Shown here: piece by piece, positions 10,141-52,488 of the stretch
How the letters are laid out: the number at the start of each line of letters is the position of its first letter
Numbering within the stretch: the stretch's first letter is position 1
NCBI GenBank assembly: GCA_014729675.1
Contig: WJJM01000005.1
Span: 1 to 52,488 of the forward strand
Direction: 5' to 3'
DNA length: 52,488 nucleotides
From: Candidatus Woesearchaeota archaeon
GTDB taxonomy: Archaea; Nanobdellota; Nanobdellia; Woesearchaeales; WJKL01
Position numbers and translations under genes: made by a program
Notes under the pieces: model-generated
What the model saw: the letters and a program-made list of their open reading frames with translations, nothing else
Told to the model about the DNA's origin: nothing
Databases searched by the model: none

Positions 10141-11232
10141 ATGATACACAAATGCTATGAAAAGTCTAAGGAAGTCATAAGGATATGTTCTACTAAACAC
10201 GGACTTTTCGCTTCTGGAGGGAAAGAAGGCTATGATGCAGTCTGGGCCAGAGACAGCGTAATAAGCATGCTTGGAGCTTCCCTGGAAAAAGAGTTCAAAC
10301 AGGTTTTCAAAGCTTCATTAGATACAGTAGCAAAACATCAATCTAGTTCAGGCCAGATCCCAAATGCAGTAGATAAGTTCTCAAAAAGAAAACCCCATGT
10401 CGATTATGCTTCTATAGATTCAACATTATTATACATAATTGGAATACATTTATACTCAAAAAGATACAAAGACAAAAAATTATTGAAAAAACATAAAAAA
10501 AACATACAGCTTGCACTTCAATGGCTAAGGTGCCAGGACTTTGGAGAGAAAGGATTATTGGTTCAGCAGCCAACATCAGACTGGCAGGACGCTTTCCCTC
10601 ATAAATACGGCTACACAATCAACACTCAGGCATTATACTACAAGGTTTTAAACTTAACAAACAACAAGAAAGATGCAAAAAATCTGAAAAATACAACCTA
10701 TTGCTCAAAAGACGACTGCCTTTGGAACAAAGATTTCTATTTGCCATTCAGATGGAAAAACCATGGAAAATACAAAGAACAGGGAGATTGGTTTGACACA
10801 TTAGGAAATCTTTTCGCAATAATCTTCGATTTGGCAGAAAAAAAGCAGGCAAAAAAGATCTTAAGCTATATAGAAAAGAACAACATTCACAAGCCTTATC
10901 CTATAAAAGCTATCTATCCTCCGATAAAAAAAGACTCAAAACACTGGCAGGATTACTATAATGACTGTGATGCAAAAAATCCATACCATTATCTCAATGC
11001 AGGCATCTGGCCGTTTATAGGAGGCTTCTATATCTTAGCTTTGATAAAACAAAAACAGTTCAGGAAAGCGCACCAGCAGCTTGAAAGGCTTGCAGAATCC
11101 AACCTGAAGAACAACTTCCCGGAATGGATCAATCCCCTGACAAGAGAAGCCTTTGGAAAACTCCAGGCATGGGATGCAGGAGTATACATGCTTGCATACA
11201 GGTCATTAAAGAAGAAAAAAGTTTTGTTATAA
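10141..11232 (+). CDS. Glycoside hydrolase, alkaline invertase (GH100)/amylo-alpha-1,6-glucosidase-like
   Basis: YDAVWARDS, GQIP, IDSTL, DWQD, YLNAGIWPF, FPEW, QAWDA. Confidence 0.8.
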   Translation: MIHKCYEKSKEVIRICSTKHGLFASGGKEGYDAVWARDSVISMLGASLEKEFKQVFKASLDTVAKHQSSSGQIPNAVDKFSKRKPHVDYASIDSTLLYIIGIHLYSKRYKDKKLLKKHKKNIQLALQWLRCQDFGEKGLLVQQPTSDWQDAFPHKYGYTINTQALYYKVLNLTNNKKDAKNLKNTTYCSKDDCLWNKDFYLPFRWKNHGKYKEQGDWFDTLGNLFAIIFDLAEKKQAKKILSYIEKNNIHKPYPIKAIYPPIKKDSKHWQDYYNDCDAKNPYHYLNAGIWPFIGGFYILALIKQKQFRKAHQQLERLAESNLKNNFPEWINPLTREAFGKLQAWDAGVYMLAYRSLKKKKVLL

Positions 11233-42505: not shown

Positions 42506-42589
42506 AGATTGCGAAAATGCGTAGCATTTTCCAATCTCCAAGAATCTCTGATTTTTGACAGATTGCGAAAATGCGTAGCATTTTCCAAT
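42506..42589. repeat. Two identical 30-bp palindromic repeats with a 24-bp hairpin spacer
   Basis: AGATTGCGAAAATGCGTAGCATTTTCCAAT at 42506-42535 and 42560-42589. Confidence 0.9.
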
Positions 42590-42603
42590 ATCGCTAATAT
42601 AAT

Positions 42604-43275
42604 CTATACATACCTTTTATCAGCTTTAACAACATTATAGCTTAATTCCCCAAATTCACAGCTTTTGCAGGCAGCATCTAAAGCAACCCAATCTCCATCC
42701 ATCTTATATCTGTTCAAAGCAGAAGGAAGATACGCTTCTATATATACATGCCCCGGAACAAAAACAAACCTTGTTTCTACCCCTGCAGCTTCAAGAAGAT
42801 TAGCCAATAGCACAGAACTATCATCACAATCCCCTCCTCTTGAAACAAGACTTTCTTTGGCACTTTTCACATACTCTACAGATGCAGGATCATTTATATA
42901 GTTGAAATTATCTCTTACAAAGTAAAACTCAGCTTTTGCATGGCATATCTTATTCCCGGAACAACCGTAAGCAGCAATATTATCAGCCAGTTGTTTTATC
43001 ACAGGATCAGAGGATTTCATAAGTTTTTCATAATCATAAGGAGATTCAACAGAAAAATCATGCTGCCCAGCCTCAACTGCAGGAATTATATCCATCCCTG
43101 GAATCTCAGAAGGCCTTGGATCTAACTTAACACCATAATAAGGAACAGCCATCATTATAAGCAATAAAGCCAAAAATATCCCTAAGACCCACCATAATGA
43201 ATTTCTGGAATCTTTTTCAACATCTGGCTCTTTTTCTATCTCTTTAGCCTCTTTTAACATATCTTTTTCTTCCAT
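42604..43275 (-). CDS. Membrane-anchored transglutaminase-like cysteine protease domain protein
   Basis: N-terminal TM; GDCDD, GHVY, W..LD triad. Confidence 0.88.
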   Translation of the reverse strand: MEEKDMLKEAKEIEKEPDVEKDSRNSLWWVLGIFLALLLIMMAVPYYGVKLDPRPSEIPGMDIIPAVEAGQHDFSVESPYDYEKLMKSSDPVIKQLADNIAAYGCSGNKICHAKAEFYFVRDNFNYINDPASVEYVKSAKESLVSRGGDCDDSSVLLANLLEAAGVETRFVFVPGHVYIEAYLPSALNRYKMDGDWVALDAACKSCEFGELSYNVVKADKRYV

Positions 43276-44665: not shown

Positions 44666-45181
44666 TCATAGTCTGGACAACCCTTCCTTGCTGCAAAGCC
44701 CCACAAAAACCTCTTTAGGAACATTAAGCCCTGTTTCAACAAAAAGCTTTGCAAGCCTGTAAACATCTGATTCATCATTTTTCTTCCTGAAATTTATAAG
44801 CCTTCTTATCCCATATTCACAGAGATAACCTTCATTAAAAGCAAGAGCTGCCTTTGAATTTTTCTTGTTATATACTTTCTTTTTAGCAGTATCAACAAAG
44901 CATTCGTCTTTTCTCCATATACCTTCCTTTTGTTTAAATCCATGGTTGTAAAGCTCCCATTCTACTATCTCTTTGATTATCTCAGAACTTTTTTTTTCTT
45001 TGATATGCCCCATAACATCTACAATAGTATAGATATCAAAAAAATCAGATTCCTTCCTGTCAAACCTGTAAACCCTCCCCAGATATTTCCTTGATTTCTG
45101 CTTTACCTTGCCTCTGCTAAGCTTATTTGAAACAAGATAAGCATATTCATATCCTTTTACCTTTTTAGTCCTTATGAACAT
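44666..45181 (-). CDS. Hypothetical basic protein
   Basis: MFIRTKKVKGYEYAYLV..KQK..KYLG N-terminus, possibly nucleic-acid binding. Confidence 0.75.
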   Translation of the reverse strand: MFIRTKKVKGYEYAYLVSNKLSRGKVKQKSRKYLGRVYRFDRKESDFFDIYTIVDVMGHIKEKKSSEIIKEIVEWELYNHGFKQKEGIWRKDECFVDTAKKKVYNKKNSKAALAFNEGYLCEYGIRRLINFRKKNDESDVYRLAKLFVETGLNVPKEVFVGLCSKEGLSRL

Positions 45182-46388
45182 CAGATATTACCTCTAAAAA
45201 GCGTTTAGGCCCTTCTTTATTATATTTTTTAAGTGCTTCCTCCATATTTCCATGGTTCCTTATCCAGGTGATAGCATCAGGAACATATCTATAAGCCACA
45301 TTTCTGCCCATAACTCTCCCGTGATCATCTTCTATAATCCTAACACCATCAGGTATATTAAACTTTTTTGCCATTTCTATCGAAAGAAGATAGCTAATAG
45401 CTTCAGATATCGCTTCTTCTGCCTGATGAGATTTATCTACACCCATCTCACTAAAATAAAAAGAGTTTGTTGTTGCAGTTGTTAAAGGTATGACCTCAGA
45501 AAAAGGGCTCCTTAACGCACTTACCCCTGTTCCGATAAATATGCAATAATGGATATATTCTCCTTTATCCACCTTGGATATATTAAATCCTCCTTTATTA
45601 TGCCTATGTCTTGCTATACTAAATTCCTGTGCAGGATTCTCATTATTTTTAAGATAAACTCTCTCAACTATAAAATAATTCTTTCCAAAAAAAACCCTTT
45701 TATTGAAATCCTTGCTGTAATCATCTCCTTCTTCTATGATTATTTTTTCAAGATTATATTTCTTGATTCCTTTGACATTTTTATACAAAAAATCAACAGA
45801 CCTTTCAAAATGCAGCATAAGTTGTTCTGCAAACACATTTTCTTCAGGAACAGCATAAATCTGTTCAGTGGCATATCCTTCATATTTCCCATCAACATCA
45901 AAATTGTTCACCCTAGCATGAAACTTTACAATATCATTGGTTACACTCTTGCTTAAATCCTTAAACTGCTTACTTTCTTCATAAAGCTTTTTTTCCTCTC
46001 CTATAGGCACGCACTTAGATATAACCTTATCAACACTCCAACCAGTATAATCAAAATCCCTTTTAAGGAAAGCAAATTCCTTTATTTCATCCTTAACAGC
46101 GGAATCAACAGAAGGGCATTTCTTACCACGAGCATTACCAGAATTGTAATATAAAGCCCCAAATACACCTAAACTCAAGCTTAAAACACTCAATATTGCC
46201 AAAGAATTTGCATGTCTCAGCCCATCCTTCGGCTTGTCAGGAATAGCACTTGTTTCGCTATTTTTTACTGCAGATCTTCTTCCTTCCTTCCTTCCCATAT
46301 TCCAGTTAGGCACTATAAGGTTTATATATTTTTCCCTTTTAAGAAGCTCTCTAATACGCGAATTCATGCATTTCAGCAAAAATAGCAA
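45165..46388 (-). CDS. Hypothetical membrane-anchored protein
   Basis: Single TM segment near the N-terminus; start uncertain. Confidence 0.65.
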   Translation of the reverse strand: MLFLLKCMNSRIRELLKREKYINLIVPNWNMGRKEGRRSAVKNSETSAIPDKPKDGLRHANSLAILSVLSLSLGVFGALYYNSGNARGKKCPSVDSAVKDEIKEFAFLKRDFDYTGWSVDKVISKCVPIGEEKKLYEESKQFKDLSKSVTNDIVKFHARVNNFDVDGKYEGYATEQIYAVPEENVFAEQLMLHFERSVDFLYKNVKGIKKYNLEKIIIEEGDDYSKDFNKRVFFGKNYFIVERVYLKNNENPAQEFSIARHRHNKGGFNISKVDKGEYIHYCIFIGTGVSALRSPFSEVIPLTTATTNSFYFSEMGVDKSHQAEEAISEAISYLLSIEMAKKFNIPDGVRIIEDDHGRVMGRNVAYRYVPDAITWIRNHGNMEEALKKYNKEGPKRFLEVISDVHKD

Positions 46389-47259: not shown

Positions 47260-47383
47260 TTTAGATAAGGAATCGATAAGGTGTTTAAAAACCTTGCGGA
47301 AATGATAAGCTTTTTGGCAGTAATTTCCATGCCTCATCAGCAGGAAATAAAACTTTTTTTTATATCGCCCCATAAGGACAAGA

Positions 47384-47461
47384 TTGTCCCAGATATTTAT
47401 TTCCTAAGTTTATCGTCGGGAAAACGCATATTCCCAGACATTCCCAGCATGGGAATGACAA
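47384..47461. repeat. TCCCA/TGGGAAT box cluster A
   Basis: TCCCA at 47387, 47432, 47442; ATGGGAATGACAA (47449) is identical to 48832. Confidence 0.7.
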
Positions 47462-47473
47462 TCTTAAATATTG

Positions 47474-48112
47474 CTAGTTGACTTTCTCCAGTCTCCAACA
47501 CCCCACTTCAATATGCTGTATCTTTTTCCTATGATGCACATAAACATTCTTCAGCGGGAACTCAAATCTCCAGAACCCTTCAACATTGAATCCATTATCT
47601 TTGCTTAACTCTTTGATAAATTTTACACTGTCAGCCTTGTGAAAGCTGTATATAACATCAGCTATTTCCATAGCCTTCACTAAGAACTTCCTGTCTGCAT
47701 GCCTTTCTTTTTGCAGCCCGAAAGGAGGATTCTGGACGACAACATCAACTTCCTCGTCGAAAAGCAAAACATCTTCCTGCAAAAAATCTGTTTTTCTTCT
47801 CAGTTTGATTTCAAATCTGTCCTCGATAATCTTAAGGTTTTCCTTAGCTGTCTGGATAGCATCTTCATCTTTCTCGACGAAAAAAACATGTTTGGCCCCT
47901 AACAGCAATGCACCTATTCCAAGAACACCTGTCCCTGCTCCGAGGTCAGCTATTGTTTTGCCTTCGATCTCTCTTCTAAAAAACGCGTTCCAGAGCACCT
48001 CAGCAGCGATATCCGCCTCTGTAGGATACTGCTCGAGCAGCACCTTAGGCTTTTCAAAACTCTTGAGTGATGACAATACTACTGCCAGCCCTTTTTTTGA
48101 CGAAATTTTCAT
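47474..48112 (-). CDS. METTL5-like N6-adenine RNA methyltransferase (COG2263)
   Basis: LEQYPT, DLGAGTG.L, NPPFG, D..F, YS.H. Confidence 0.92.
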   Translation of the reverse strand: MKISSKKGLAVVLSSLKSFEKPKVLLEQYPTEADIAAEVLWNAFFRREIEGKTIADLGAGTGVLGIGALLLGAKHVFFVEKDEDAIQTAKENLKIIEDRFEIKLRRKTDFLQEDVLLFDEEVDVVVQNPPFGLQKERHADRKFLVKAMEIADVIYSFHKADSVKFIKELSKDNGFNVEGFWRFEFPLKNVYVHHRKKIQHIEVGCWRLEKVN

Positions 48113-48120
48113 GTCAAGAC

Positions 48121-48615
48121 CTCACTTTTCCAGCACTTATTTTTCTTGATCTCATTTTTTCTGAATTCTTCTCAAGTATATCTCACTTTTTCCAGATATT
48201 TATAACTTTTCATTTCATCCTTATTTTTTCTTCTCACTTTTTCTGATCCTTTCTTTATTGTCTGTTTTTCTCCTCTAAAAATACTCACTTTTTCACCCAT
48301 AATCCTAAAATAACAAATTTATAGATCTTCCTGATAATACTCTATTATATCCAACTCTCACTTTTTTACCATATCTCCCTATATCTGCTTATTCTTTCCC
48401 ATTTTTGCATGTTGACGCTGCACCTAACTCTCACTTTTGCCTCTTTTTACCTTATTTCTTTTGTTTTTAGTGCCATTCTTCTCATATTTACTCTCACTTT
48501 CTGTATATTCTAGCTGATTTCAGCCTTATTTCACCCATTTTCCCTGAAATCAACTCTCACTTTTTGCCAAAATAGCCTTATTTTAGCATTTTTTCACCTT
48601 TTTTACTCTCACTTT
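48121..48615 (+). repeat. Array of nine phased CTCACTTT boxes
   Basis: Starts at 48121, 48182, 48233, 48284, 48357, 48430, 48493, 48556, 48608 in a pyrimidine-rich non-coding tract. Confidence 0.9.
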
Positions 48616-48780
48616 CATCTATTTTAAGTCTAAAAATTAGCTTTTTGATTCTATATTTTTGCATAAATCCTCCCCAAAATTTCAAAACCCTGCCTTGCTT
48701 TTTTGATCAAAATTTACAAAGAAAAACAGTTAAACAATATTCATCTCAGATATATTCTGCCTCTTTTTCTAAAATCTTTC

Positions 48781-48945
48781 ATTCCCAAAATATTCCCAAG
48801 ATAGTCCTGGGAATGTCCCAATATTGTCCCAATGGGAATGACAAATAAAGCCTAAAAAACTAAAATTTGTCCTCTAAAAACCAAATATATTCCCAGATAT
48901 AGTCCCAAGATATTCCCAAAATAATCCCATTTTTGTCTTGGGAAT
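48781..48945. repeat. TCCCA/TGGGAAT box cluster B (11-bp period)
   Basis: TCCCA at 48783, 48794, (TCCT 48805), 48816, 48827 and 48891, 48903, 48914, 48925; inverted TGGGAAT at 48808, 48833, 48939. Confidence 0.88.
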
Positions 48946-48985
48946 TAGAAAGATTTAAATAAATAAGAGATATTTTTATTTTAAA

Positions 48986-49642
48986 ATGGGAATATTTTCA
49001 TCATTATCACAGAAAGACAGCCATGTTCACAAGCTGCACCAGGCAGTATCATTTGCTTTCCAAAAAGTGAAAGATGACACTTCCCAGATATTCCAATGGC
49101 TGCAGCACTTTCATCAGAAGCAGCAGGATACTGATCAAAGGCTGGCAAGGATTGAAGAACACATAGCCAGCTCTGACAGTCAGGATTCATTAGAGCTAAA
49201 GCAAAGGCTTAGAAAGCTAGAATACCACACACAATATCAGCCTCAGATTTCAAGAGAAGAGATAAGAAGGATAGCTGAAAACTCTGTATCATACGATCAC
49301 ATATTAAGAAAGATTGAAGAGATAAATTTAAGGATAGATACATTAGAAAAGAGGAAATCTGCACAGAGAATAGAGAAAAAACAGTCCATCAAAGACAGGA
49401 TAGTCAAAAAGATAACAAAGAACAGCAAGGATTACATAAAAAGCGTTGTCTTGTCTCTTATCAAGAAATATCAGCAGATATCTGGCTCCCAATTAAGGGA
49501 AATAGTAGTAGAAGAGCAGGGATTGTGCTCAAAATCCTCTTTTTACCGTGCTTTGGAAGAGCTTGAACAATCTTCAGATATAGAGATGATGAAAAAAGGC
49601 AAGGAAAAAACATATGCTTTTAAGACGACGATCCAAAGGTAA
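48986..49642 (+). CDS. Coiled-coil protein with a C-terminal winged-helix-like domain
   Basis: Heptad region, then VLSLIKKY..IS..QL...V...GLCSKSSFYRALEELE...I...K.GKEK.Y. Confidence 0.75.
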   Translation: MGIFSSLSQKDSHVHKLHQAVSFAFQKVKDDTSQIFQWLQHFHQKQQDTDQRLARIEEHIASSDSQDSLELKQRLRKLEYHTQYQPQISREEIRRIAENSVSYDHILRKIEEINLRIDTLEKRKSAQRIEKKQSIKDRIVKKITKNSKDYIKSVVLSLIKKYQQISGSQLREIVVEEQGLCSKSSFYRALEELEQSSDIEMMKKGKEKTYAFKTTIQR

Positions 49643-49700
49643 ATAGAAAAGTTTAAAAACAAGAAGCATTTTGAAATTAATACCAAATGGGGTGGTGGTA

Positions 49701-50240
49701 ATGACAAATTTAGTATTAGACAATAGAGATTCTGCTCTAGCAGAACTAAAAAAACTGACTAAAAACGTCAAGATAGCTTTTTCTGAGGTGCACAACGAAT
49801 TCGAGGATCATCTGGAGGGTATAAATGAAAATACAAACGAGATACAGTCTAATTATGAGTACATCTGTGAGGTAGACAACAAGATATCTAAGCTAAATGA
49901 AAGGATAGATGATATCTACAATGTCCTGTCTAACATCACAGGCAAAAAGCTAAAAAAGATGCCTTCTTATGAGGATATAGATCCTCTAACAACAGAGGAA
50001 AAGAATGTATTTCTTAACCTTTACACAGAGCCAGAGTCCATTTCCTATGTTGAATTGGCTAAGAAGATGAACATGCCAATTTCATTAACAAGGCAGTACA
50101 TAACAAATCTGCTTGAAAAAGGCATACCTATTCAGAAAGAATACAAGAAAACAAGGCCTTTTATCTATCTGGACAAAAAGTTCAAAAACCTTCAGGCAAA
50201 AAAGAATGTTTTGAAGATTGAACAAAAAATATTAACTTAA
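49701..50240 (+). CDS. Coiled-coil protein with a C-terminal HTH (HTH_11/BirA-like)
   Basis: GGTGGTGG RBS; LT..EK.VF..LY...ISYVELAKKMNM...LTRQYITNLLEKGIPI. Confidence 0.78.
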   Translation: MTNLVLDNRDSALAELKKLTKNVKIAFSEVHNEFEDHLEGINENTNEIQSNYEYICEVDNKISKLNERIDDIYNVLSNITGKKLKKMPSYEDIDPLTTEEKNVFLNLYTEPESISYVELAKKMNMPISLTRQYITNLLEKGIPIQKEYKKTRPFIYLDKKFKNLQAKKNVLKIEQKILT

Positions 50241-50735
50241 AACTTTTAAGATTTTATTATTTATTTTATTCTCTATTTTTTCTAAGCTTTGCTTAAAACT
50301 TTTAAATATAGAATATTTTTAAAAATTTGATTATGACTTTTTATTTGCATACATCAATTTATATTTTTAATATTGAAAATAATCAGGATAGATTATACAT
50401 TTAAATCAACCCAAAATGCCTAACTTCTATAACCTTAGAATTAGGGCTTAATATGTTCAAATTCACCCTTTTTAGCCATTTTTATCATTTTTAGTGTAAA
50501 AACTGCGTTTAATGTACCTTAGATGCCGTTTTATGAATCTCTACAGAAAAATGTAAAACTATAATCTAGATCAATGAAATAACACAATTAATTTTCTATA
50601 TTATAAAACATTTAGTTTTTGCTTAATACTTTTATATTCTATTTATTTTAGTTTTTGCTTAAATGTTTTATACGCACTGACCACTGTTCAAGTGTAGGCA
50701 TAATATTTATATATACGAACATCTTTTTACTAATA

Positions 50736-51221
50736 ATGGAAAGAAATCCTAATCAAAGAAGAATAATAAAATGTGAAGGTTGTGGGGAAGAAAAAGAACA
50801 TCATGCAAAAGAGATGTGTTTGAACTGCTATAGGCGAATTGCATGGAAAAGAAAGAATGTTATCTGTAAAAATTGTGGAAGAAACTTACCCCACAAAGCA
50901 TATGGACTTTGTCAAACATGTCATATTAAGCTGCACCATTATGATAAAGTAAAAGCCCATAATTATAGAAAATGGCATAATGTAGATTTAGATTTATACC
51001 GAAAAATAATTAAAAAATGTCTAATATGTGATTTTGATAAAATTGTTGATTTACACCATTTAGATGGAGATCATAAGAATAATTCTGAAGAAAATCTTAT
51101 TGGATTATGCCCAAACCATCACAAATTACTCCATGATATGCGTTTTAAGGAAGAAACTCAGAAAGAAATAGATAAAAGGCTCAATCCTGAATATTTTAAA
51201 CGCACTTTTCAAAACAATTAA
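50736..51221 (+). CDS. HNH endonuclease with two N-terminal zinc-finger repeats
   Basis: Two CxxC..HxAxxxCxxC repeats; CxxC..DLHHLDGDHKNN..NL..LCPNHH. Confidence 0.88.
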   Translation: MERNPNQRRIIKCEGCGEEKEHHAKEMCLNCYRRIAWKRKNVICKNCGRNLPHKAYGLCQTCHIKLHHYDKVKAHNYRKWHNVDLDLYRKIIKKCLICDFDKIVDLHHLDGDHKNNSEENLIGLCPNHHKLLHDMRFKEETQKEIDKRLNPEYFKRTFQNN

Positions 51222-51251
51222 ATACTTCTAAGTTAATTATAATTAAAAAAG

Positions 51252-52100
51252 ATGGTGCTCCAAAAACTAGAAACAGAACTAAGGCTAAGAGGATTTTCAG
51301 AAAAGACAGTAAAAAACTATATTTTCTATAATCAAAAATTCTTAGATTTTATAAACAAGCAGCCAGAAGATATCCAAGAAGATGATATAAAATCATTCAT
51401 TGCACATCTGATGTCAGACAAAAACTATAAGCCTGCATCAACAAACTTAGCTATCTGCTCTTTAAGGTATTTCTATGAAAAAGTCCTTGAAAAAGAGATA
51501 TTTACAAAAATAACTCCTCCAAAATCAGAAAAAAAGATCCCTACAGTTCTAACAAAAGAAGAATTGAGCCAATTGTTCAATGCAATAAATAACAAAAAAC
51601 ACAGGATACTATTAGAACTCATGTATTCTTCAGGATTAAGGGTCAGTGAAGCAGTATCATTAAAGTTTGAAGACCTAAACTTAAATGAAAAAGTGGGTAT
51701 TGTACGCCAGGCAAAAGGAAGAAAAGACAGGATCATAATCCTCTCAAATAATACCGTAGACAAACTGGAAAAATATAAGAAAAAAAGAGATAAAAAGAAA
51801 CTATTCCCAGATAATCCTTATATATTCCCATCAAACAAACAAAAAGAATCCCATATGTCTATAAGGCAGGCTCAGAAAGTGATAAATGACGCAGCTAAAA
51901 AAGCAGGCATAAAAAAGAGGGTATTCTGCCATTCATTAAGAAGCAGCTTTGCAACACATCTGTTAGACTCAGGCACAGATATAAGAGTCATCCAGGAATT
52001 GCTAGGCCACTCTAACCTCTCTACTACAGAAAGATACACAAAAGTCTCTACAGAGCAATTAAAGAAAGTAAGATCTCCTTTTGATAATATTAAATTCTAA
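51252..52100 (+). CDS. xerA: Tyrosine recombinase, XerA/integron-integrase-like
   Basis: SAM-like N-domain (LRGFSEKT..Y), SGLRVSE, KG.K.R, HSLR, LGH, T..Y; no IntI-specific insertion visible. Confidence 0.88.
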   Translation: MVLQKLETELRLRGFSEKTVKNYIFYNQKFLDFINKQPEDIQEDDIKSFIAHLMSDKNYKPASTNLAICSLRYFYEKVLEKEIFTKITPPKSEKKIPTVLTKEELSQLFNAINNKKHRILLELMYSSGLRVSEAVSLKFEDLNLNEKVGIVRQAKGRKDRIIILSNNTVDKLEKYKKKRDKKKLFPDNPYIFPSNKQKESHMSIRQAQKVINDAAKKAGIKKRVFCHSLRSSFATHLLDSGTDIRVIQELLGHSNLSTTERYTKVSTEQLKKVRSPFDNIKF

Positions 52101-52117
52101 TCACAATATTTGAAGAA

Positions 52118-52163
52118 GTTTGTCTCCATCACATTTAGGACAATGTTACAGACAAACCTAAAT
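52118..52163. other. Overlapping inverted repeats just downstream of the recombinase
   Basis: GTTTGTCT/AGACAAAC and ATTTAGG/CCTAAAT pairs around CAATG-TTACAGACAAA. Confidence 0.45.
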
Positions 52164-52312
52164 AAAAAATAAATTATTGTTTTTAGATTAAAAAATAATA
52201 AGTCCACAAAAAAACATCAATTTTATAAATAAAATAAGAAAATTTATTAATATTTGAGCGGATTGTTTTTGGTTAGTGCTCGTAAATTTGATTCTTAATA
52301 AGGTTTTAGCAC

Positions 52313-52340
52313 TGGGAATTTGGGAATGTGCTTTGGGAAT
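52313..52340. repeat. TGGGAAT box cluster C
   Basis: TGGGAAT at 52313, 52321, 52334, directly before the ATG at 52341. Confidence 0.7.
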
Positions 52341-52488
52341 ATGGCAATACACAGATATATTGAAACAGAATCTCATAAAAGGATAAAAAAGACAGAAAGA
52401 AGAATAAAAAGAAAAGGCTATTCTATTACAAGACCTGCAAAACTTAACGGTATTGGCCAGGTTGACCTGTGTTTTATGAATCAACAGG
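52341..52488 (+). CDS. Truncated CDS, possibly a PD-(D/E)XK nuclease
   Basis: Read from sequence: MAIHRYIETESHKRIKKTERRIKRKGYSITRPAKLNGIGQVDLCF..., open to the window end. Confidence 0.5.
   Translation, partial: MAIHRYIETESHKRIKKTERRIKRKGYSITRPAKLNGIGQVDLCFMNQQ

Follow-up and report, generated by a model that had tools for sequence, protein, structure and literature searches.

Two phased repeat arrays beside a pair of winged-helix genes: a possible single-copy architectural site in Woesearchaeales chromosomes

In a contig of a Candidatus Woesearchaeota archaeon (WJJM01000005.1, whose 52,488 nucleotides are the window analysed here), we found two arrays of phased repeats that cluster together at one place in the 1.44-Mb, 92% complete genome (G000), adjoin two genes, p1 and p2, for proteins with a long N-terminal helix and a winged helix, and recur at the orthologous place in relatives spread over many families of the order. 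We tentatively favour the interpretation that this is a single-copy architectural site of the chromosome, coated through predicted binding of p1 and p2 and often linked to dif and xerA, rather than a replication origin. The first-pass annotation of this DNA had proposed that the two proteins read the two motifs as an undescribed replication-initiation or segregation system; the repeats are real, unique and co-occur with the gene pair, but the origin part of that proposal is unsupported. The locus is chromosomal core and not mobile, and the gene order UPPS-orf171-AMMECR1-MT / p1-p2-xerA recurs among the 20 related loci that we compared (Table 1).

Table 1. Features of the locus, in window coordinates
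Feature	Position	Strand	Details
Small TCCCA cluster between MT 3' end and rpoL	47387..47455	.	boxes 47387+, 47432+, 47442+, 47450-
MT, class I SAM methyltransferase	47474..48112	-	NPPF motif; Pfam MTS 2.5e-13
Array of 9 CTCACTTT boxes, all in the same orientation	48121..48615	+	motif scan
Two blocks of [T/G]TCCCA boxes, 11-bp period	48783..48993	.	blocks 48783-48838 and 48891-48945
p1, 218 aa, no known family	48986..49642	+	long N-terminal helix and C-terminal winged helix
p2, 179 aa from second ATG (ORF opens 49671)	49701..50240	+	N-terminal 80-residue helix and MarR/ArsR-like wHTH
Third motif, (TTTGC)TTAAAACTTTTA(AGCAAA)-type near-palindromes	50238..50671	+	at 50238, 50288, 50618, 50654
Candidate degenerate dif-like site	50499..50532	.	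AAAACTGCGTTTAA-TGTACC-TTAGATGCCGTTTT; arms match 11/14, 6-bp spacer
HNH endonuclease, double zinc ribbon	50736..51221	+	Pfam HNH_2 21.7 bits, cutoff 21
XerA-type tyrosine recombinase	51252..52100	+	NF040815 254 bits, cutoff 220
Three further TGGGAAT boxes	52313..52340	-	boxes 52313, 52321, 52334; 148 bp from contig end

Both arrays lie in a gap that is non-coding over 873 bp (48113-48985), since the start codon of MT ends at 48112 and the ATG of p1 stands at 48986; genes diverge from it, and the first-pass annotation had described its layout correctly. Its composition (A.28, C.225, G.074, T.42) is poor in G, the 7.4% ranking 17th among 13,875 windows of 800 bp. The CTCACTTT boxes, with the extended consensus tAAC[T/C]CTCACTTTt, make up all but one of the 10 matches in the window, where 3.2 +/- 1.8 are expected and none of 100 shuffles reaches 10; genome-wide there are 35 matches, and the array is their sole cluster. 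Start-to-start spacings of 61, 51, 51, 73, 73, 63, 63 and 52 bp are phased (Rayleigh R is 0.83 for a 10.4-bp period, a value that 1% of random sets of spacings attain), and phasing extends across 13 genomes with 66 spacings (R 0.53 at 10.6 bp).

The boxes of the first TCCCA block (48783, 48794, 48808(-), 48816, 48827, 48833(-)) and of the second group (48891, 48903, 48914, 48925, 48939(-), 48987(-)) are mostly 11-12 bp from their neighbours, and the last two, which are inverted, bracket the promoter and start codon of p1. A search of the whole genome for clusters of at least three ATTCCCA boxes returned only the gap, 47387-47450 and 52313-52334. MT is thus bracketed by TCCCA clusters; it adjoins the gap in 14 of the 20 related loci, and its NCBIfam matches are all below cutoff. 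On the far side of MT, relatives carry a '++--' cluster (L045, L046, L048) or a '++++' cluster (L047).

Both motifs, with order and strand kept, recur in the orthologous gap even of relatives with no more than 30-50% protein identity, and across Woesearchaeota the gene pair and adjacent upstream repeats do co-occur. Among the related loci, 15 carry p1 and 5 do not: CTCACTTT arrays occupy the orthologous position in 12 of the 15, and TCCCA clusters are present in 13 of the 15 compared with none of the 5. In a scan of 151 genomes of the order, the CTCACTTT array pattern occurred in 37 genomes (8 for the control), with 23 of the matches at most 2.5 kb from p2, and a phased TCCCA triple occurred in 43 (5 for the reversed control), lying within 1.7 kb of p2 in 35 of them. 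All 35 belong to the set of 50 genomes whose p1 match is strong (E at most 1e-30). In the other 101 genomes no array was found adjoining p2; in two of these, G055 and G138, an array abuts a weak p1-like match. Arrays and p1 are together present in just about a third of the sampled genomes.

The two proteins are probably paralogues of an undescribed family in which a helix of about 80 residues precedes a winged helix. AF2 models place this helix at residues 7-83 of p1, followed by the C-terminal winged helix (pLDDT 84.8), and at residues 2-80 of p2, followed by the wHTH (pLDDT 83.5), bearing out the common layout first read from the sequence; moreover, the N-termini are related to each other (hhalign probability 89.5%, E 1.9e-6). 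The recognition helix of p1, CSKSSFYR, is invariant in 53 sequences, paralleling the invariant core of the motif, and the N-terminal helices keep invariant residues as well (polar H37, N42, E47 and N51 in p2; F25 and W38 in p1). The most economical inference is that p1 and p2 read the two motifs, above all p1 the TCCCA boxes. Since p2 is nearly universal in the order (134 of 151 genomes) and stands behind ordinary short promoters in genomes lacking p1, it may have another main job.

If the site is architectural, p1 would oligomerise through its long N-terminal helix while its invariant winged helix would bind cooperatively to the TCCCA boxes, which their 11-bp phasing would place on a single face of the DNA. 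With their spacing in multiples of 10.4-10.6 bp, the CTCACTTT boxes would share one face as well, and either p2 or a second surface of p1 may bind them. The two proteins would jointly gather some 1-1.5 kb of DNA, the MT gene and the promoter of p1-p2 among it, into a single defined nucleoprotein particle that would autoregulate p1-p2, and probably MT too. This particle would give the chromosome a single marked position, in many genomes next to dif and xerA, and the mark might serve chromosome organisation or unlinking, as a roadblock, an anchor or a helper biasing XerA where FtsK is not found.

An unlikely but serious alternative is purely transcriptional, with p1 and p2 as ordinary autoregulated factors and the arrays as an outsized operator, or a region resembling an enhancer, that would serve the divergent promoters of MT and p1-p2 and have no role in chromosome mechanics. 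The MarR/ArsR-like fold of p2, its normal promoters where it occurs alone, the position of the arrays between divergent genes at most loci, and the inverted boxes at 48939 and 48987, which straddle the TATA region of p1 and recur as a '+++-' ending in L041, L045, L048 and L052, all fit such a role. However, in G016, G032 and G076 the p1 gene is inverted and the arrays have not moved, so that they now lie at its 3' side, which argues that they are more than a p1 operator. Against it also stand CTCACTTT copies that run on into the coding part of MT (relatives have antisense CTCACTT copies there) and the strictly single-copy nature of the site, which would leave p1 and p2 as factors with no second phased array in the genome. 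To our knowledge, known archaeal operators have far fewer sites than the 20 or more phased over 1-1.5 kb here.

The proposed link between the site and chromosome mechanics comes from the far side of p2, where a 495-bp gap of 78% A+T (50241-50735), noted as very AT-rich at first pass, holds the dif-like candidate, and where the XerA assignment of the recombinase gene stands. The candidate scores 11.5 with a dif position weight matrix (PWM), and 35 positions in the genome score at least as high, which gives a chance of about 0.01 of finding one in a gap of this length. In form it is similar to those of G146 and G016. As a candidate it is weak, and contig C37 of the same genome holds better PWM matches. 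The signal is sharper in relatives: 21 of the 151 genomes each have a single CGTATAAT-N6-TATRCG (control, 0 of 151), 16 of these sites lying at most 450 bp upstream of xerA and at most 6 kb from p2, and the best PWM match in the whole of G016 is separated from xerA by 1.3 kb and from p2 by 5 kb. The dif-like candidate, which the first-pass annotation had missed, and its equivalents in relatives shift the segregation half of the first-pass proposal towards chromosome dimer resolution or organisation.

This linkage has limits. Of the 151 genomes, at least 43 have a XerA-family gene no further than 5 kb from p2, but only 18 of the 35 array-bearing genomes do (hand count), and G134, G130 and G009 showed no dif-like site within the 9-kb locus, so cis coupling to dif is not obligatory. 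The whole block is syntenic, unrelated housekeeping genes included, and the adjacency may therefore be historical. In addition, the locus of G016 (431-438 kb) is away from both the skew-predicted terminus (about 50-150 kb) and the origin (about 700-764 kb). Counting against an architectural site, too, is the distance of 1.3-6 kb between arrays and dif, beyond the reach of known accessory sequences.

Such accessory sequences, cer and psi with PepA, ArgR and ArcA, span about 180 bp, abut the core site, wrap, and impose resolution selectivity without FtsK. The present locus likewise has extra, putatively protein-binding DNA beside a Xer core site, but at the distance just given and sometimes unlinked from it. 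MatP of enterobacteria, a site-specific coiled-coil binder, organises the dif region, and p1 and p2 would share with it a coiled coil, site-specific binding and that neighbourhood; matS sites, however, are scattered over hundreds of kb and MatP has a ribbon-helix-helix fold, whereas the sites here are packed into 1 kb. XerH/difH is reportedly a single-recombinase Xer system in which dif adjoins the gene. The same arrangement is described for XerS/difSL in PMC2958812, which also states that Thermococcales dif does not adjoin xerA, and PMC11840125 places haloarchaeal dif upstream of the xerA operon. The 11-6-11-type inverted repeat upstream of xerA in the 16 genomes above follows this pattern; the present genome departs from these systems in its degenerate candidate, in the HNH gene inserted beside it, and in that no FtsK was found in an assembly that is 92% complete.

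The nearest precedent is in Thermococcus kodakarensis, where, according to PMC11840125, a 1.9-kb sequence around dif is bound by the winged-helix filament protein TrmBL2 and makes an SMC boundary independently of XerA and dif. Our locus resembles it in its large stretch of non-coding DNA next to dif, a winged-helix protein (that would coat it), one landmark per chromosome, and SMC in the genome; TrmBL2, as characterised there (PMC11840125), differs in belonging to the TrmB family and binding with little sequence specificity. Here, in contrast, the motifs are two, discrete and phased, the proteins form a new family marked by a long N-terminal helix, two genes separate the arrays from dif, and in about half of the genomes the arrays have no xerA nearby.

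Iterons upstream of the binder's operon, with a binder that is also an autorepressor, are known from R1 parC/ParR (type II partition) and TubR/tubC. A centromere-like partition site of this kind, in which p1 and p2 are the adaptor and the pulling or anchoring falls to a division protein or to a motor whose gene lies elsewhere, seems improbable to us. The two blocks of 4-6 direct repeats of about 11 bp, on one helical face and upstream of the putative binder's own gene, match it, as does the single copy of the site, and the invariant N-terminal-helix residues suggest a partner surface. However, no NTPase turned up when six conserved neighbour genes were searched for across the 20 related loci, or when the genes around the locus of our genome were scanned with Pfam, and the locus has no ParM or TubZ motor; p1 and p2 are winged-helix proteins, unlike the ribbon-helix-helix ParR; and the site is chromosomal, core, far from orc1, and equipped with a second motif type spaced 5-7 helical turns.

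A Cdc6-independent origin initiated by p1 and p2, as first proposed, we consider very unlikely. Repeats adjoin the gene of a winged-helix binder at archaeal Orc1/Cdc6-ORB origins and at Sulfolobus oriC3 with WhiP, as they do here for a putative one; AT-rich DNA is close by, gene directions diverge from the gap, and cumulative GC skew on contig C61 declines steadily as far as a minimum at 49,114 and climbs after it, though only 3.4 kb are left to the contig end. The first-pass annotation was right that this contig has no orc1/cdc6, and there is no whiP-like gene adjacent, but both a canonical orc1/cdc6 (430 bits) and an ORB-like element with a G-string, differing from the motifs of this locus, are present on contig C28 (C28:1-1317). 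In four complete genomes and one near-complete one, the main orc1 is 198-402 kb from p2 (G016 328, G025 198, G085 402, G097 348 and G098 359 kb). The complete G016 has its GC-skew minimum at 705 kb and its gene-strand turn at 650-700 kb, near orc1 at 764 kb, and neither turns at its p1-p2 locus; in a 400-kb stretch of G078 neither turns within +/-200 kb of the locus. Finally, about two thirds of the order's sampled genomes yielded no arrays. Least probable of all is that the gap encodes a non-coding RNA or small-transcript array, G-poor as read on the + strand: its extreme strand composition and the uniform orientation of the CTCACTTT boxes, most followed by T runs, would suit one, but no Rfam family beyond two chance-level rows was found at E up to 1, nor any tRNA, only the 8-14 nt boxes and not the intervening sequence or the gap's small ORFs are conserved between genomes, and the boxes carry on within MT.

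The HNH gene, which the first-pass annotation counted into the module, is present in single copy between the dif-like site and xerA, but we rejected it as a member, as none of the 20 related loci carries it and the insertion is specific to this genome. The additional TGGGAAT boxes past xerA were also borne out; the nearest relative, L041, showed no counterpart on the downstream side of xerA. For the third motif, the pattern TTGCTTAA-N3-5-TTTWA has five matches in the genome, three of them at 50238-50671, and this near-palindrome also adjoins p2 and xerA in relatives.

The two motif arrays in the 873-bp non-coding gap between MT, a class I SAM methyltransferase gene, and p1 lie on one helical face, occur in one copy per genome, and are tied to p1, the first of two adjoining genes for proteins with a long N-terminal helix and a winged helix. 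The second gene, p2, is present in 134 of the 151 genomes sampled from the order (105 of the 116 of high quality), as a single strong match in most genomes; in the phylum sample, p2 is strongly matched throughout this order, and other orders of the class give weak matches to its C-terminal part only. These and the following counts describe a sample of the order, in which related genomes are non-independent, and hand counts cover the matches listed. The p1 gene adjoins p2 in 21 of 29 loci (19 of 27 without two unpublished genomes). Of 20 larger loci, 15 have p1, 14 have MT across the gap, 11 have xerA, and none has the HNH gene, so that the last is specific to the source genome (G000), where it apparently was inserted between a dif-like candidate and xerA.

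The first-pass annotation had linked the gene pair to its repeats, and this association is borne out across the lineage, since the arrays are kept at orthologous gaps. These gaps are 250 to 1400 bp long and G-poor, with both motifs retained in unchanged order and strand. The first box, CTCACTTT, which has a CTCACTT-type core, extends to the consensus tAAC[T/C]CTCACTTTt (79 copies from 13 genomes), and its phasing in relatives (66 spacings, 13 genomes) gives R 0.53 at 10.6 bp, a value that overstates significance because homologous positions are non-independent. The pattern CTCACTTT-N43-73-CTCACTTT is found in 37 of the 151 genomes versus 8 control genomes, with 23 matches within 2.5 kb of p2. 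The second repeat type, as the phased triple TCCCA-N5-7-TCCCA-N5-7-TCCCA, is found in 43 of 151 genomes versus 5 for the reversed control, and in 35 of these 43 (34 of 42 without unpublished G132) it shares a contig with p2 and is no more than 1.7 kb away from it. All 35 locus-associated TCCCA arrays fall within the 50 genomes with a strong p1 match (48 without unpublished G121 and G132), and two more adjoin weak p1-like matches (G055 and G138). At the locus level, TCCCA clusters accompany 13 of 15 p1-bearing loci versus none of the five p1-less ones. In G016, G032, and G076, which have p1 inverted, the arrays are unmoved, hence at the 3' side of p1.

In many relatives, several CTCACTT copies lie antisense within the MT coding sequence at conserved codons (loci L044, L045, L047, L048, L051, L052, L054, and L056); in G000 all nine are in the gap. 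Distant relatives share the codons concerned, which encode H-K-S-E, K-V-S-x-E-Q-Y, and V-R-H-A-D, and MT of G000 uses others. Such copies may represent dual coding for a DNA site.

The G000 genome comprises 1.44 Mb in 72 contigs at 36% G+C, and the window is one entire contig, C61, whose proteins have homologues labelled Candidatus Woesearchaeota at NCBI. Both repeat types that had been noticed there are real, and both arrays are unique in the genome. CTCACTTT has 10 copies in the window, nine of them in one cluster and all on one strand, whereas 3.2 +/- 1.8 are expected from shuffled sequence and 0 of 100 shuffles reach 10; genome-wide there are 35 copies and no other cluster. The spacings of 61, 51, 51, 73, 73, 63, 63, and 52 bp are whole helical turns (Rayleigh R 0.83 at 10.4 bp, attained by 1% of random spacing sets). 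The TCCCA boxes, mostly of the form A/T-T/G-TCCCA, make two blocks with an 11-12-bp period, and smaller clusters lie past the far end of MT and after xerA; beyond these places, clusters of at least three ATTCCCA boxes are absent from the genome. The plus strand of the gap contains 7.4% G, ranking 17th of 13,875 among 800-bp windows for depletion of G or C.

Coordinates of the locus features in the window
Feature	Position	Strand	Remarks
UPP synthase, orf171, orf407, AMMECR1, RpoL, MT	47474-48112 (MT, the last)	minus	six genes running up to the gap
orf171	44666-45181	minus	no family match
orf407	45165-46388	minus	no family match
ORF with repeated peptide	42509-42640		between two minus-strand genes
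Small TCCCA cluster	47387-47455		past the far end of MT
MT-p1 gap	48113-48985		873 bp, non-coding
CTCACTTT cluster	48121-48615		nine boxes
TCCCA blocks	48783-48838; 48891-48945
Inverted TCCCA boxes	48939; 48987		on either side of p1 promoter and start codon
p1	48986-49642	plus	first gene past the gap
p2	49701-50240	plus	after p1
dif-like candidate	50499-50532		in AT-rich gap
HNH endonuclease	50736-51221	plus	double zinc ribbon; single copy in genome
XerA	51252-52100	plus	NF040815, 254.4 bits vs cutoff 220; Pfam Phage_integrase, 5e-44, and N-terminal SAM-like domain
Small TCCCA cluster	52313-52340		after xerA

Searches for RNA genes returned two chance-level Rfam rows at E up to 1 and no tRNA. 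The small open reading frames of the gap are not conserved, and their weak tblastn rows are translated TCCCA repeats. A search for sequencing runs that contain 47300-50300 listed none, and so no RNA run. On the minus-strand side, orf171 is syntenic in 11 of the 20 related loci and orf407 has no relative in them. Further out, a listed open reading frame encodes the peptide RKCVAFSN twice, hinting at a short direct DNA repeat.

Neither p1 nor p2 belongs to any described family. Pfam gave p2 only a subthreshold HTH_24 match (20.4 versus a cutoff of 21.9), NCBIfam nothing significant for either protein, PDB sequence profiles coiled-coil noise only, and the ESM Atlas only unnamed clusters of Woesearchaeota/Nanobdellota (DPANN). 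In the AF2 models (mean pLDDT 84.8 for p1 and 83.5 for p2), about 80 residues at the N-terminus form a helix, and the C-terminal part is a winged helix. In Foldseek, p1 has generic winged-helix matches only (best E 2.4e-3), and p2 matches a MarR/ArsR wHTH core (E 4e-4, TM 0.32-0.37). Membership of p2 in the MarR family, which calls for a MarR domain with its own helical dimer interface, was rejected, as the wHTH core alone aligns and Pfam MarR gives no match; a TrmB/TrmBL2 identity for p1 and p2 was likewise rejected, with no Pfam TrmB match at E up to 0.1. By hhalign, the p1 and p2 families align with each other in their N-terminal parts (probability 89.5%, E 1.9e-6), and p1 and p2 are therefore probably paralogues. 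The p1 recognition helix, C181-R188, is invariant across 53 sequences, which fits a motif core constant across the order. No longer or fused form of p2 was found, a result to be read as weak evidence.

The first-pass annotation overlooked a candidate dif-like site in the AT-rich gap behind p2, and dif-like sites in the equivalents of this gap in relatives. A dif site is expected to be one inverted repeat per chromosome, about 28 bp long with an 11-6-11 layout. Inverted repeats so laid out, for example GTTCGTATAAT-GTATAT-TATACGAC, are found in the p2-xerA spacers of relatives, 25 to 120 bp upstream of the xerA start; we call them dif-like by layout, proximity to xerA, and uniqueness in the genome rather than by identity to a validated archaeal dif. 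A PWM built on seven such spacer sites recovered held-out sites immediately upstream of xerA in G141, G146, G018, and G085, and in all 1.3 Mb of G016 its best single match is 1.3 kb away from xerA and 5 kb away from p2. CGTATAAT-N6-TATRCG, a strict form of the site, is present once per genome in 21 of 151 genomes, versus none of 151 for the reversed control, and in 16 of the 21 it is at most 450 bp upstream of xerA and at most 6 kb from p2. By hand count of the rows listed, at least 43 genomes, some of them p1-less, have a XerA-family gene no more than 5 kb from p2 (41 without unpublished G132 and G112). The AT-rich gap of G000 itself (495 bp, 78% A+T) has a degenerate candidate whose arms agree at 11 of 14 positions around a 6-bp spacer; it scores 11.5, better matches being on contig C37, and the chance of such a match in the gap is about 0.01, because 35 positions genome-wide score as high. 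A third motif in the same gap consists of TTTGCTTAAAACTTTTA-type near-palindromes; it is rare in the genome and is seen again beside p2 and xerA in relatives. With only five matches in the genome, it was rejected as a general promoter.

On the reading that we consider likeliest, p1 oligomers would coat the TCCCA blocks, and the CTCACTTT boxes would be read by p2 or by a second surface of p1. Together, the two proteins could fold a stretch of 1-1.5 kb that includes MT into a single particle that would autoregulate the operon and mark the chromosome, often beside dif-xerA. In Thermococcus, according to PMC11840125, the winged-helix filament protein TrmBL2 stalls SMC at a 1.9-kb region surrounding dif, forming a domain boundary independently of XerA and dif, and in haloarchaea a dif-like element lies upstream of the xerA operon. 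The Thermococcus region is the nearest precedent among the literature consulted. The arrays with p1 and p2 might go further and constitute the first archaeal Xer accessory system, a phased nucleoprotein filter or division-site anchor replacing FtsK/KOPS and also a CTCF-like landmark; we regard this extension as improbable. If it were true, XerA would resolve chromosome dimers without creating them in a lineage in which no FtsK was found: G000, a 92%-complete genome, has SMC, and our search of it did not find FtsK.

A plain, oversized autoregulatory operator is a serious rival. Strict coupling to dif is weakened on several counts, and the operator therefore keeps its standing: xerA is within 5 kb in only 18 of the 35 array-bearing genomes, no dif-like site is present within 9 kb at the array loci of G134, G130, and G009, a distance of 1.3-6 kb separates the arrays from dif, and the entire block is syntenic with unrelated housekeeping genes. 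Moreover, G016 has its dif-like site at 430.9 kb, roughly 90 degrees around the chromosome from orc1 (764 kb); the skew maximum is at about 150 kb, and the site is outside the skew-predicted terminus region.

The locus had first been put forward as a candidate Cdc6-independent replication origin or partition module. The observation behind this, that orc1/cdc6 is missing from the window, holds, with TIGR02928 matches on contigs C28, C52, and C30 only; the origin reading itself is not supported. The main orc1/cdc6 of G000 is canonical (C28:1-1317, 430 bits), a second paralogue is on C52, and upstream of the C28 gene is an ORB-like dyad with a G-string and a second inverted half-site, the sole G-string ORB-like element seen. 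The gap boxes, CTCACTTT and TCCCA, do not form such elements on either side of an AT-rich unwinding element. In G016, G025, G085, G097, and G098, a distance of 198-402 kb separates p2 from the main orc1. The minimum of cumulative GC skew in the complete genome G016 falls at 705 kb, and the turn of gene-strand balance at 650-700 kb. Both places are near orc1, and neither measure turns at the locus (431-438 kb); nor does either turn in 400 kb of G078 centered on the locus. The one point in favor of an origin is the cumulative GC skew minimum of the window, at 49,114, which is 3.4 kb before the contig end and coincides with a local gene-strand switch. The likely chromosomal origin is cut by an assembly break, since the C28 orc1 starts 226 bp from its contig end, behind the ORB-like element; an overlap joining the end of C61 to that or any other contig end was sought, and none of at least 12 nt was found. 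As a separate observation, the given strand of the whole G016 sequence (L061-L126) shows a net excess, with 77,697 more A than T and 13,941 more G than C, and despite this excess the long open reading frames of the closed 1.30-Mb genome are balanced between strands, 623 versus 641.

With type II (ParMRC) partition systems, the locus shares iteron blocks of about 11 bp upstream of the p1-p2 operon. However, those systems have a ParM/NTPase motor and a ribbon-helix-helix adaptor, whereas here the operon consists of p1 and p2 only, Pfam finds no NTPase among the neighbors, and both models are winged helices. A CRISPR array, which calls for near-identical 24-48-bp repeats, unique spacers, and cas genes, was rejected, since only 8-14 nt are common to the units, the spacing is an irregular 51-73 bp, and the boxes are conserved across families and within coding sequence. 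An integrated mobile element or provirus, which would be expected to show sporadic distribution, a variable context, and genes of its own, was dismissed because the locus is core by its p2 distribution, single-copy, and kept in synteny.

DPANN archaea have small genomes and few known DNA-binding factors. To our knowledge, the organization, segregation, and unlinking of archaeal chromosomes are largely open, and we know of nothing established for DPANN; the literature searched, limited in scope, contained no paper tying DPANN or Woesearchaeota to dif/Xer or a replication origin. The locus offers a sharply defined cis/trans pair that is open to testing: two short motifs that stay the same in families between which protein identity is down to 30-50%, in strict helical register and one copy per genome, with two small soluble proteins for which E. 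coli can serve as expression host. It also brings the first candidate dif sites for the order, mostly directly beside xerA. Should the complex act on XerA or SMC, it would reveal how dimer resolution is controlled in an organism in which FtsK was not found.

Outside the window, G000 has a second XerA-family gene (C18:8515-9273). Its two best dif-like PWM matches, C37:9836-9863 and 10537-10564, are direct repeats 701 bp apart with the right arm and flank in common (ACGAACTTAGGCA). They lie in a block of about 15 kb whose genes, many of which are small, are on the minus strand. The GC skew of this block is the most extreme of the genome, and the block looks like elements integrated at a Xer site.
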